Assembly (NCBI GenBank): GCA_951406725.2
Contig: OX597814.1
Coordinates: 140,058,001-140,122,000 of the forward strand
Length of the DNA stretch: 64,000 nucleotides
Direction: 5' to 3'
From: Octopus vulgaris
Taxonomy: Eukaryota
Under the pieces are notes generated by a model. That model saw nothing but the letters and a program-made list of their open reading frames with translations. It had not been told where the DNA came from and did not search any database. Positions 10,362-15,071 of this stretch are shown here, in pieces (the stretch's first letter is position 1; every line of letters begins with the position of its first letter). A program made the position numbers and the translations under genes.

Positions 10362-10611
10362 TAGAGAAATTAAATATCTTTATTTCTACCAGAGTAATTC
10401 TCTAGACAGAAAAGAAATGTAAAGCTGTACAGAGTTATATACAAAGCATCAATATTACACATGCATTCAGTTAGGTTTCAGTAGTTGAGATGTCATGTTC
10501 AATATCAGTTAGCAGCTTTTGCTAAGAAGCAAAATGCAATCAAGTGAATAGCAGACCATCATTGATCTATATTTACAGTACACTATGAAGCTTGTAACAC
10601 ATGTTTCAGTC
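10362..10611 (-). repeat. Left copy of 250-bp inverted duplication
   Basis: Reverse complement of 14822-15071 with 4 transitions by manual alignment. Confidence 0.95.
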
Positions 10612-11055
10612 GATGAATTTTTGAATTTCCAATCAGCGCTTTCACCCATTAACCCAAATAGAACATCATGGGTGTGACAACTGGAAGGAGAGAGAACATA
10701 TATTTTAAATGATTGAAAAGTAGTAAGCTTTAATATATAATTCAATAATAAGGAAGATAAATTCATGCTTATCCACACTTTCCTAACTTATTTTATTTTG
10801 AGGGAGGTTTAAAATATTCACAGGAAATTGTAGTTATTCCAGTCTTTGGGAATAATAGGAGGAAGAGATGTTCACCTTGTTGGATTTTTGAATTTCTGAA
10901 TTTTCTTTGCTTTTTCTTTTAGAATTTTCTTTTTTTTTTTTTAAAGTTTTGCTGTGGTTTACAGTTTTTGTAGTTGTGAATTATGTATATATTGGCAGGT
11001 GCTAACTTCCTAAATTTTTTGTCATGCATTTAATTGTGTTGTTACAATAAAAGGC

Positions 11056-11154
11056 ATTATTATTATTATTATTATTATTATTATTATTATTATTATTATT
11101 ATTATTATTAATAATAATAATAATAATAATAATAATAATAATAATAATAATAAT
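11056..11154. repeat. Self-complementary microsatellite (ATT)18(AAT)15
   Basis: Directly visible. Confidence 0.95.
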
Positions 11155-12194
11155 AGAAATGGATTAGCAGAATCTTTAAAGCTTTGGGAAAAATGACCTA
11201 ATGTATTAGTTTAAAATTCTTTACATTCTGAATTGAAATCTCACTGACATCAACTTCGCCTTTCACCACTTCAGAGTCGGTAAAGTAAAATACCAGTCAA
11301 GTACTGTATGTGATGGTATCAACTAACCCTCTTCCCTCAGAAATTACTGATATTGTGCCTAAATCAGAAACAATCATTTTTATTACTGAGTGAGATGCTA
11401 TTTTTGCCTCCCATTTAATATTTTCACTAACTGTGGTTAAAAAAAAAAAAAAAGAGCTACCTCAACCAGTCAGTTCACATGAATGAAATTTTTGGAAACA
11501 TGGTCCTATTAGCCATCAATGGGGCTTTGTAAAGGTGTCCTGTTAAGAATCAAGGCTAATTTTGGAATTGAGTTTTGATTTTGCTGCTGATAAATTTCCT
11601 TATTTTACATTTATTTATCCATGAAAAATGTATTTTGAGTTTCTAAAAAAGAAAAATATGTTATCACAAAAGAAAATCAAATTATATTTTCTTTATTTAA
11701 CGAATATGGACAATTCTGAAAATTGCATTTATGGAATGTAATTTTTTTTTCAGTTGAGGGAATTCTGATTGGGAATAATGAAAATTTTAAAAAATAATAA
11801 TAAATGATTGAATGAAAATAAAAATTTAAAGTAAATATCAATAATATTGAAGTAAAGTTTGGTGGAAACACAACTCATTCATTATGACAGAATAAAAATA
11901 ATGTAATTGATTTTATAAAACCTCTTAAACCATAAAAATCCAAAATATATTATTCTTGAATATTTAAAAAATATTTTAATAGGTTTCCAGGACTACAATA
12001 TTTTAATGTGTCCTTCCTTTTTTATACCTTTTCAAAACTAATTTAAGAGAAATTTGGCTGGTATTTCTACCAGGTTGAGTGACAAAGCATAGGCTATCCC
12101 ATTGGCTCATCACACTTTTTATAGTCCTATTGGAATGCGAGTTATACAACCACGCTGGCAACCTGATATGTAATATTTATTCATTCTTTTTTTT

Positions 12195-12840
12195 TTCTTT
12201 TTATTCTTTTACTTGTTTCAATCATTTGACTGCGGCCATGCTGGAGCACTGCCTTGAAGGATTTTAGTTGAACAACGTGACCTCAGCGCTTATCTTTTAA
12301 GCCTAGTACTTATTCTGTTGGTCTCTTTTGCTAAACTGCTAAGTTATGGATGTAAACACACCAACACCAGTTGTTAAGTGGTGATGGAGGGACAAACACA
12401 AACCCCCAAGACACACACACGTGTGTATGTGTGTGTTTGTATATGATGGGTTCCTTTCAATTTCTTATTTCTTTATTGCCCACAAGGGGCTAAACATAGA
12501 AGGGACAAACAAGGACAGACAAAGAGATTAAGTCGATTACATCGACCCCAGTGCGTAACAAGTACTTAATTTATCAACCCCAAAAGGATGAAAGGCAAAG
12601 TCGACCTCAGCGGAATTTGAACTCAGAACGTAAAAACAGACGAAATACTGCTAAGCATTTCTCCCAGCATGCTAACGATTCTGCCAGCTCGCCACCTTTC
12701 AGTTTTTGTCTACCAAATCCACTCACAAAGCTTTGGTTGGCCCAAGGCTATAATAGAAGACACTTGCCCAAGGTGCCCTGCAGTAGGACTGAACATGGAA
12801 CCATGTGGTGAGGAAGCAAGCTTATTACCACAAAGCTATG
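12195..12840 (-). mobile_element. SINE family B copy with nested family A copy (12464-12694)
   Basis: Family B body interrupted; TSD CCTTTCA(A/G)TTT at 12453-12463 and 12695-12705. Confidence 0.8.
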
Positions 12841-13710
12841 TATTTTAATAAGTTTCAATATTTGTGTAAGTTCATTGTTAAACTGTTTTGTTGTATTTAT
12901 CTATATTATATAAGATAGTATTAGCTTGACTGGTTTGTCTTGTTAATTGTCCATTTTACCATGCTGGCATCACTTGGACAGGAATTCATTTTGTAGCGGG
13001 ATTTCTCAACCAGATGTTATTTTTTGTTGCCAACCCTCCCCTGTTTTTCTGATAAGGGATTTTACATTCCACAGCTCATTGAAAGCACAGAACAGCTGGT
13101 TGTAATGTCAATACAGAATGTAAATATCTGCACTGTTTTACTCAATTGATTTTATTCAATTGATCACAAGGGAAATATCAGCATCCATGCGCATATATTC
13201 AAACTTATGCACATACATATATGTTCCTATGTGTATACTTACATATATATACACACATACATGTGTACATGCTTACACATAAACATACAGACATTTATGC
13301 AAATGTATGTGTGTATATTTACACACACTTATACACACCATGATGGACTTACTACAGTTTCCATCTGCTAAATTTATTCACAAGGCATTTGTTTGTTCAG
13401 TCTCTTGTAGAAGACACTTGCCCAAGGTGCTGCACACAGAACTGAACCTGAAACCACCAAGTTGCAAAATAAATTTCTTAACCACATAGCTATGTCTGCA
13501 CCTATATACACTGAGCTGTATTTGGGGACAGAACACATAAAAATTGAAATAATTTCACTAAAATGTTATCATTTAATATAGATATTTATTTATCAAACTA
13601 TTCATTGATTTCCCTAACTATAAAGAAGTTGGTTCAGAAGGATCATAATACATACATCTGAATTATGTCACTTGCAATTATTATTGCAGTCCTTCCTATT
13701 TTACTGATAT

Positions 13711-13992
13711 AGGGTGTGATTTGAGGAAGATTTGGTTGCTATTTCTAGCAGGAGGTCAACCATGTAGTGGCTCCCTTATTGGCTTGATGAATTTGTAGAT
13801 CTGTTGTTGTTTGACTTCATTTTAGATCTGACCTAAAACACAATGACCAAAGACACTCCATCTACAATTACCCTCTCTCTTAGTGTCAAGTGTATTCTTC
13901 CATGATTAAAATGGTAAGGTGTTATTTGAAGTTGATTTGGCTGCTATTTATAGTAGGTCAAACTACCATGTAGTGGTCCCTTTATTGGCTTG
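13711..13992 (+). repeat. Two nearby copies of short interspersed repeat family D
   Basis: Consensus-like GGTGTGATTTGAGGAAGATTTGGCTGCTATTTCTAGCAGG...TTGGCT at 13711-13787 and 13916-13992; also about 12045-12110, 16845-16880(-), 19748-19810, 27750-27800(-). Confidence 0.7.
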
Positions 13993-14123
13993 CATATTCT
14001 TTAATAATCATTGATAAGGATCAGTTATACCTCTCAAAATTTGATGTTTTGTATCTCTCTTAGGAATCAACTGTAGTTCAATATTGTGAATAATAATTGC
14101 TACAAGAGGTCTAATCATAGAAC

Positions 14124-14320
14124 ATGAGAGTAGAACTGGAGAAAAGGCTGTAGTTTCTCCAGGTCATCCACACAACTTTGAAATTTGATGTAGTTCTATG
14201 GTCTAAAAAGGCAAAGCTGATTATCTTGATCAAGCTCACAGTCCCATAGGAAGGAGAGTATCTTTGAATAGAATCTTACCAAATACCGGAACCAATTACA
14301 GGATTGCAGGGAGATAGGGA
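14124..14320 (+). pseudogene. Decayed restriction-like endonuclease domain of a Hero-like non-LTR retrotransposon
   Basis: Translates as MRVELEKRL*FLQVIHTTLKFDVVLWSKKAKLIILIKLTVP*EG...KYRNQLQDCREIG, matching the recalled motif MRVDL..RLQFP.V.TTLRPD.VLWS....IILIELTVPWEE...KYQ.L..DCR..GW. Contains stops and a frameshift. Confidence 0.8.
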
Positions 14321-14821
14321 TGCTATTTTCAGAATGGAGAATATATATAGAATACTTACAGCCAATGGAAAAATAAGTAAAGAAAGTAAGGTAGCTCTTT
14401 AAAGAAGGTGGAGAGGCAAAAGAAAGAGCCTCTTGATTATTATGGAACAAGTTATGGAACTGAGAGTCAGGAGGAGAAATGAGTAGTTATTTGACCACCA
14501 TTACCAACCCACCAATGAGTGGGTGTTACAGATCAGGGTTGTAACACCTTTTGGTCATTGGATACTGTCTGATAATATCAATTCCTTCTGATCAGATCTT
14601 CATTCATCACAGGGGGAATGAAGGAGAAGCATCTTCTTTTAGATTTAATCAATATCATATTGCTAAATCTTTGCCATATTTAGCATCATGGCGGCTATTT
14701 CTGAGATTCACCTACCTGCAATTATTCTGTATCTTTAATCTTTGTAAGGAGAAAATAATATCATATTCTTGCACAATTTAGTATATATGCCAAAGCATTT
14801 GTTAATCTGTGATATTTCAGA

Positions 14822-15071
14822 GACTGAAACATGTGTTACAAGCTTCATAGTGTACTGTAAATATAGATTAATGATGGTCTGCTATTCACTTGATTGCATT
14901 TTGCTTCTTAGCAAAAGCTGCTAACTGATATTGAACATGACATCTCAACTACTGAAACCTAACTGAATACACGTGTAATACTGATGCTTTGTATATAACT
15001 CTGTACAGCTTTACATTTCTTTTCTGTCTAGAGAATTACTCTGGTAGAAATAAAGATATTTAATTTCTCTA
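14822..15071 (+). repeat. Right copy of 250-bp inverted duplication, terminal-exon-like
   Basis: Begins 1 nt after ...TTAATCTGTGATATTTCAG (14820); reads AGA CTG AAA CAT GTG TTA CAA GCT TCA TAG; AATAAA at 15049-15054. The duplication is certain; the exon status is not. Confidence 0.9.

Follow-up and report, generated by a model that had tools for sequence, protein, structure and literature searches.

A most likely recent, probably neutral inverted duplication in non-coding DNA of Octopus vulgaris: a likely scar of break repair

A single-copy 250-bp segment of the Octopus vulgaris genome has been duplicated in inverted orientation 4.2 kb away. The duplication lies in non-coding DNA and is most likely a recent scar, probably neutral, not a switch built for RNA pairing. 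Break repair, taking templated insertion and inversion together, probably produced it. The likeliest origin, template switching in break repair or a staggered-break inversion, was not named in the preliminary description of this DNA. It is supported by the existence of two copies only, 1.6 % apart, by their unique flanks, by microhomologies at both ends and by an interval between the copies that is much older than the arms. The window, i.e. the whole stretch of DNA analysed, comprises 64,000 nt and contains no N.

Results

Direct comparison confirmed that 10362-10611 is the reverse complement of 14822-15071 over 250 nt, with four differences (right-copy positions 14869, 14969, 14972 and 14981), all of them transitions, and no indels, i.e. 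98.4 % identity between the arms:

10362..10611, minus strand: left copy of the 250-bp unique segment, inverted arm (sequence comparison, genome search)
14822..15071, plus strand: right copy of the 250-bp unique segment, with AATAAA 17 nt before its end (sequence comparison, genome search)

BLAST stretches the match to 261 nt at 97.3 % by taking in further 4-nt matches at both ends. The pair is the longest of 967 inverted pairs in the window (E ~1e-125), and the arm had no other above-noise match there, in agreement with the earlier statement that it lies outside all repeat families of the window. When the 2.8-Gb O. vulgaris assembly was searched, both of the candidates returned (2/2) were the known copies, while three true transposon-end (terminal-repeat) controls gave 620, 1968 and 103 candidates in the same search; the search has blind spots, as an AT-rich palindrome arm returned nothing, not even itself. 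The locus comparison rests on one O. vulgaris assembly. In 1.0 Mb of random sequence from this genome one of four other local inverted pairs tested was also two-copy, and thus two-copy inverted duplications are not a rare class. A single arm folded no better than its shuffles (z 0.15), a metagenome pattern scan gave 0 matches, and Rfam searches of 11160-17000 gave only sub-threshold matches, on dinucleotide repeats.

The interval and its surroundings contain the following features:

10612..14821, unstranded: 4.2-kb interval of ordinary old non-coding DNA, possibly inverted relative to the ancestor
10612..10778, minus strand: single-copy inner-left flank with a strong acceptor-like site (AG at 10682-10681)
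10779..11057, plus strand: piece from the interior of a dispersed, non-coding repeat family, with an (ATT)n(AAT)n tract after it; predates the duplication
14100..14664, plus strand: 3' end of an old dispersed repeat, presumably LINE-like, 64-78 % identity, with its natural end ~160 nt before the right copy
10180..10330, unstranded: end of an old dispersed repeat, which we take to be a Tc1-like terminus, ~80 % identity, stopping before the left junction

The repeats of the interval are 64-91 % identical to their relatives and the arms 98.4 % to each other, and the arms are therefore younger than the interval. Insertion of the repeat at 10779 along with the left copy was rejected on the same grounds, since this repeat and its best relatives are ~90 % identical. 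No second copy was found for the three parts of the interval that were searched, which matched only themselves at high identity, and the tested frames of the interval gave neither a Pfam match nor a transposase frame. The strand skew of the interval has the same sign (plus) as that of its surroundings, with a likelihood ratio of 2.0-4.9 for an interval that was not inverted, which is a weak test; a cruder fit gave 12.5.

Two short features adjoin the copies:

10352..10361, plus strand: end of the outer-left flank, whose final 7 nt have an exact second occurrence at 14800-14806; together with the end of the copy, this stretch gives a 6-bp fold-back
14795..14821, plus strand: inner-right flank, consisting of an imperfect direct repeat of the outer-left flank end, a 15-nt spacer and TTTCAG

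Flank matches of 4 nt (TTCA and TTAA) were found at both ends, just beyond 1-2 mismatches (chance 0.011 each), and a fold-back or direct repeat of 6-8 nt at three of the four junctions (chance 0.06 each, not independent); these junction statistics are post hoc and concern AT-rich DNA. Reverse-complemented, the TTTCAG of the inner-right flank equals bases 3-8 of the copy itself, giving a 6-bp fold-back such as folding at a repair junction would create. Such short fold-back and direct repeats, with 4-nt microhomologies at both ends, are what template switching leaves, and in the excerpted text of PMC5728401 fold-back and direct repeats at junctions are the signature of SD-MMEJ. The outer-left and inner-right flanks have in common a repeat of 7 nt exact, or 10-12 nt imperfect; the chance of the exact 7-mer is 0.004 per pairing, but this pairing, with a score of 7.5, is one of 12 examined, and two of the others, direct or inverted, reached 7.0. 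A simple insertion does not account for why the end of the outer-left flank recurs 15 nt ahead of the right copy; an inversion does. Rejoined in silico, the two flanks gave a hairpin stronger than 98.5 % of random 60-mers, which is plausible as a fragile site. In a split-repeat test at the four junctions no repeat crossed any of them, and the flanking repeats all ended short.

The nearest gene found encodes an SLC4/AE2-like anion exchanger on the plus strand, with its coding start 51 kb downstream. As an acceptor precedes the first coding exon, an upstream exon of this gene exists, and the transcript may start 51 kb or less from the duplication site. The 100 kb upstream yielded no coding exon. 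Between -100 kb and +65 kb, exon prediction by an ad hoc score, which recovered 7 exons of the AE2-like gene and missed several others, gave no convincing coding exon; 41 weak candidates were judged by eye. Pfam matches were obtained for 4 of 136 selected frames (most of those of at least 44 aa from 1-30 kb, and 15 chosen from 30-64 kb). A Vps8 match at 23356-23631 was rejected as chance, since Vps8 exons lie on C21. T exceeded A on the plus strand in 86 % of 49 bins across 264 kb, compared to 58-61 % in two control blocks, which hints at plus-strand transcription, the orientation needed for reading the right copy as a terminal exon. The CpG profile of the region located no promoter. For 10170-11050, 24 sequencing runs were listed, 20 with part of the stretch and under five organism labels; none was recorded as RNA and several were only guessed to be RNA (largest share 0.48), so that the runs are a lead, not expression or junction evidence.

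The outline of a terminal exon described earlier for the right copy is present in all its parts: TTTCAG ending at 14820, a frame of 9 codons (RLKHVLQAS*) and, 17 nt before the copy's end, AATAAA; a UGUGUU-like tract lies downstream. It is not trivially a chance outline, because TTTCAG within 0-3 nt of the junction has a chance of 0.003 and AATAAA 10-30 nt before the end one of 0.04, jointly near 1e-4 per copy and orientation. On our ad hoc scale the acceptor scores 1.1, compared to 2.05-7.0 for 7 acceptors of the AE2-like gene; its polypyrimidine tract is poor, and 12 % of unmasked AGs score as high. At the corresponding position of the left copy there is no acceptor; a stronger one was located on the minus strand, 69 nt farther upstream (AG at 10682-10681), and the 56-codon frame that follows it had no relative in protein searches at longer and near lengths.

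If one transcript spans both arms, these would pair almost perfectly, in line with the earlier proposal that they can pair: 247 of 250 positions are predicted to do so, with three of the four mismatches being A-C in the plus-strand duplex. The predicted energy is -421 kcal/mol, vs -229 to -278 for three SINE-type pairs, and the arms would give the longest and best-matched inverted pair in the window. The further claim, that the duplex controls a terminal exon, found no support, the acceptor being weak and no upstream coding exon having been found.

Discussion

An inverted copy inserted by break repair, with the interval left unflipped, is the reading that we favour over an inversion carrying the duplication, although taken singly it has slightly less than an even chance of being right. 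A DNA end would have broken or stalled and switched template at short microhomologies, copied the nearby opposite strand and then returned. The outcome would be a recent inverted copy, made once, of a single-copy 250-bp stretch, 4.2 kb off, persisting as a probably neutral scar. Excerpts of PMC8421209 describe MMBIR as yielding inverted templated insertions that persist as germline variants. For the present duplication we infer the repair mechanism, the germline fixation and the neutrality.

An inversion of the 4.2 kb is the closest competitor, possible but with the smaller chance. One staggered break, or two template switches, would have turned the interval round, with the 250 bp duplicated so that each end of it has one copy; the most likely ancestral order is outer-left flank, reversed interval, a single copy and outer-right flank. 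Non-repetitive sequence is indeed found in inverted duplicate at both ends of the interval, which fits the excerpted account of Ranz et al., where 17 of 29 Drosophila inversions had inverted duplications, with a median of 321 bp and often at one breakpoint only (PMC1885836). The repeat common to the outer-left and inner-right flanks and the strong hairpin of the rejoined flanks point in the same direction, and the two junctions that the model calls new are the two with 6-bp fold-backs. However, the skew of the interval has the sign of its surroundings, 2-5 to 1 against a flip, no repeat is split across any junction, and the flank repeat is only marginal after 12 pairings.

The proposal of the preliminary description, in which the right copy serves as a terminal exon controlled by the duplex, is unsupported. 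In the fuller form of this proposal, a plus-strand transcript, e.g. the 5' untranslated part of the AE2-like gene, would have the right copy as a genuine terminal exon or as a poly(A) site within an intron, and the left copy would mask it by pairing, steering editing or 3'-end choice. We consider this improbable. TTTCAG, AATAAA and the UGUGUU-like tract are in place, the regional skew is plus-strand, the AE2-like gene has an upstream exon, and the predicted 247-pair duplex is far stronger than the three SINE-type pairs. On the other hand, the acceptor is weak, no upstream coding exon was found, the longer frame has no protein relative, and the copies are too young for conservation to show. The window has twenty further inverted pairs with a length of 100 bp or more and a separation of no more than 10 kb, and young repeats are the usual ADAR targets according to PMC9989829. 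If a transcript does span both arms, ADAR editing would be a by-product, as for many inverted SINE pairs nearby. Judged from the nucleotide sequence, the terminal-exon and ADAR reading is thus unsupported but not refuted. It concerns function, and is compatible with an origin by insertion as well as by inversion.

An origin linked to retrotransposition, which we rate just as improbable, would make the duplication a truncated retrocopy of an RNA 3' end, or an inverted copy templated during LINE insertion, in which case the shared 7-mer would be the target duplication. In both copies AATAAA lies 17 nt before the end, and in its geometry the locus, read as repeat, inverted copy, insert, repeat, 15 nt and template, matches the C17 analogue. 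The same geometry is reported, in the excerpted text, for human L1 templated insertions of <250 bp within 15 bp of the site (bioRxiv 10.1101/2024.08.27.596794). Against this, neither copy has a poly(A) or microsatellite tail, the poly(A) tail having already been noted as lacking at both, nor is there one before the 7-mer; no young element adjoins a junction, and no source copy was found for any of the three parts of the interval that were searched. The upstream flank of the left copy is not a spliced upstream exon, because it has no second copy. With no tail and no source for the flank, the local retrocopy offered earlier as an alternative is unlikely.

An assembly artefact, e.g. a two-haplotype chimera at a heterozygous inversion, is slightly less probable still. 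The 1.6 % difference could be allelic, but the window has no N and the four junctions are distinct, unique and carry microhomology. Fold-back read artefacts do not resemble a layout with a 4.2-kb non-palindromic spacer. Least probable is a DNA transposon flanked by a TA target duplication, with the two copies as its long terminal inverted repeats: the outer ends do read TA...TA, formally such a duplication but automatic for any inverted repeat ending in TA, and 250 bp falls within the size range of long Tc1-type termini, but 2 candidates vs 103-1968 for the controls leave no dispersed family and nearly refute this earlier suggestion, and the interval has no transposase frame, is older than the arms and holds old host repeats.

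As a repair scar, the duplication provides a single datable case of the way in which small inverted duplications come about in octopus DNA, in a class whose frequency is very roughly one per megabase (a random sample with one event and a wide error). If transcribed, it would be a young, single-copy, near-perfect duplex, present or absent by lineage or allele, and a clean natural test of the origin of new ADAR substrates, because reads map uniquely, unlike those of SINE pairs. It is very doubtful, though conceivable, that one repair event set a near-perfect 250-bp antisense arm upstream of a segment with a poly(A) signal in a long 5' intron of the AE2-like transcript, giving a lineage-specific, possibly polymorphic ADAR-edited duplex that tunes premature 3'-end formation in an acid-base transport gene.

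Compared to known systems, the locus differs from intronic inverted-repeat ADAR substrates (PMC9989829, excerpts) in that its arms are single-copy DNA, not a mobile element; two near-identical arms a few kb apart, which would give a long duplex in one pre-mRNA, are common to both. With L1-associated templated insertions, as excerpted from bioRxiv 10.1101/2024.08.27.596794, it has in common that the template, up to 250 bp long, is separated by 15 bp from a flank motif occurring as a direct repeat, but here no retroelement or tail is found at a junction and the 4.2-kb interval has no source; the C17 analogue fits that class, the present duplication does not. The inversions of Ranz et al. 2007 (PMC1885836, in part) likewise show non-repetitive sequence of a few hundred bp, duplicated once and inverted at the interval ends, one-sided duplication being common there, whereas the present interval is only 4.2 kb, its skew leans against a flip, and its copies are 98 % identical compared to ~88 %. 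The likeness to MMBIR/FoSTeS and SD-MMEJ, as described in PMC8421209 and PMC5728401, consists of an inverted local copy, microhomologies at its ends, and junction fold-backs and direct repeats; the MMBSearch definition in PMC8421209 places the template of an MMBIR insertion at most 100 bp away, whereas the present copy is 250 bp long and 4.2 kb from its template, outside that definition.

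Results

The preliminary description had reported an inverted duplication outside the repeat families of the window, and this was borne out: 246 of 250 positions are equal between 14822-15071 and the reverse complement of 10362-10611, the four differences being transitions, with no indels. The pair is the longest among the 967 inverted pairs of the window, and neither the rest of the window nor a genome sample of 1.26 Mb gave a further match to the segment. When copies were counted across the whole 2.8-Gb assembly, both of the two candidates were the arms themselves. Three local inverted pairs of proven dispersed families drew 620, 1968 and 103 candidates from this search, which is thus able to detect terminal-repeat families; it has blind spots, since one AT-rich palindrome arm returned nothing at all. 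Neither copy has a tail, as originally described. We conclude that the duplication is real, young and two-copy.

10362-10611, left copy
14822-15071, right copy
10612-14821, enclosed interval (B)
Outer-left flank (A), old element ending about 30 nt short of the junction
End of B, old element that stops roughly 160 nt before the right copy, at its natural 3' end

Repeats in B are 64-91% identical to their relatives whereas the arms are 98.4% identical to each other, and the arms are therefore younger than the interval they enclose. B is old host DNA; none of three searched parts has a near-identical second copy, the start of the outer-right flank is single-copy, and no repeat spans a junction. 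Each end of the duplication shows an extra 4-nt match between flanks beyond one or two mismatches, with a chance of 0.011 per end. At three of the four junctions there is a fold-back or direct repeat of 6-8 nt; the chance is 0.06 for each, and the three are not independent. The final 7 nt of A reappear 15 nt before the right copy (chance 0.004 per pairing), a result that is marginal after 12 pairings, two others of which scored nearly as high.

The right copy had been read as the outline of a terminal exon. Its motifs are present and not trivially due to chance (0.003 for TTTCAG 0-3 nt from a junction, 0.04 for AATAAA 10-30 nt ahead of an end), but the acceptor is poor: it scores 1.1 on an ad hoc scale, compared with 2.05-7.0 for seven acceptors of the AE2-like gene downstream, and lacks a good pyrimidine tract. 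On this scale 12% of unmasked AGs score as high, and bases 3-8 of the copy itself, when reverse-complemented, likewise read TTTCAG. A stronger acceptor-like site (ad hoc score 5.45, top 0.3%) lies 69 nt upstream of the left copy, so that a minus-strand outline would be equally plausible:

10681-10362, minus strand, acceptor-like site, 319 nt and AATAAA, including the left copy

Protein searches found no relative of the 56-codon frame of this outline. A listing of sequencing runs that match part of the region named none catalogued as RNA, and some may be RNA; it counts neither for nor against expression.

Should one RNA cross both arms, their predicted duplex would pair 247 bases at -421 kcal/mol and, on the plus strand, contain three A-C mismatches; the corresponding energies of three SINE-type pairs are -229 to -278 kcal/mol. 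Another 20 inverted pairs measuring 100 bp or more, with partners within 10 kb, occur in the window. A decayed mariner-like transposase frame (58820-59338, minus strand; weak Mos1 HTH match, E 0.0014) overlaps a 230-nt, 84% inverted pair (58428-59372), and a young repeat family preceded by (AAT)n, 93-95% identical over 305-538 bp, occurs at 24012-24316, 41559-42101 and window-relative 87759-88295 (coordinates continued past the window ends).

An exon predicted 44 kb past the window matches, at 100%, an Octopus vulgaris protein annotated as anion exchange protein 2-like. The exons of this SLC4/AE2-like gene lie on the plus strand:

Window-relative 65,887, plus strand, start of the conserved first coding exon
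Window-relative 78,799, plus strand, alternative first coding exon

An acceptor precedes the exon at 65,887, and at least one untranslated exon therefore probably lies further upstream. Exon prediction gave no convincing coding exon from -100 kb to +65 kb, which is moderate evidence of absence because the predictor overlooked some true AE2 exons. Strand skew often marks the transcribed strand. Here it had the same sign in 86% of 49 bins over 264 kb, compared with 58-61% in two control blocks, and mean T-over-A was 0.054, five control blocks lying between -0.013 and 0.024. The plus-strand skew (-100000 to +164000) extends no less than 165 kb ahead of the AE2-like start codon and may reflect a very long plus-strand transcription unit; this leaves open that the duplication may lie inside a long plus-strand intron. 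An AE2-like intron also contains a 436-bp palindrome without spacer (99.5%; window-relative 101091-101525), about 950 nt ahead of the large second coding exon and predicted to form a perfect hairpin in the pre-mRNA, for which the genome search returned nothing, itself included (a search blind spot).

As a baseline, five random 200-kb blocks were sampled for pairs that were 80 bp or longer and 90% or more identical; depth and complexity filters kept 24 rows from 414, including the present duplication and one palindrome near AE2. The blocks contained 10 inverted pairs that were separated and of low depth, along with 8 direct pairs and 4 palindromes lacking a spacer. At C1:70159000-70165596, nested 91-93% inverted pairs make up a large palindrome, interrupted and some 6.6 kb long, and a 937-bp direct duplication (98%) has its copies 4.9 kb apart. 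Four of the ten separated inverted pairs were searched genome-wide: three were dispersed families and one was two-copy (97.5%):

C17:30091450-30092024, inverted duplication of 120 bp present in two copies, having a target duplication of 11-12 nt and its template 15 nt away from the site

This analogue includes a young repeat that carries a (GAT)n tail and is 93-95% identical to its other copies. It resembles, in octopus, a germline templated insertion linked to a LINE, a label that we infer.

Discussion

The locus is a fresh example of an already known class of event, and the inverted duplication is most likely a neutral scar of break repair. Two histories yield the identical present layout. 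We tentatively favour, at somewhat less than an even chance, the one in which a 250-bp copy would have been placed in reverse orientation with B left as it was, because the skew of B has the same sign as that of the region (likelihood ratio 2.0-4.9 for unflipped B). That ratio counts equally against the other history, an inversion of B with duplication of the 250 bp at a staggered break. Such an inversion is somewhat less probable. In its favour, the ends of A and B are related in sequence and lie at the two junctions that have 6-bp fold-backs; if once joined, they would form a predicted hairpin that exceeds 98.5% of random 60-mers in strength.

The locus has the 15-nt geometry in common with the C17 analogue, but a LINE-linked templated insertion is a minor rival since the present duplication lacks a young element, a tail and a source for B. 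A function for the exon-like outline or the duplex is very improbable; according to PMC9989829, editing in animals usually targets young repeats, and any editing of the arms would be a by-product of no special note. The flank upstream of the left copy has no second copy and both copies are tailless, which makes a spliced retrocopy unlikely.

Most likely, break repair scarred the octopus locus; its junction marks, the 4-nt matches and the short fold-backs or direct repeats, are those that passages of PMC8421209 and PMC5728401 attribute to template switching at microhomologies. The inversion history finds its likeness in Drosophila, where 17 of 29 inversions carry staggered-break duplications according to a section of PMC1885836, with a median of 321 bp compared with 250 bp here. 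The C17 analogue, with its target duplication, tailed young repeat and nearby template, resembles human L1 templated insertions as outlined in bioRxiv 10.1101/2024.08.27.596794.
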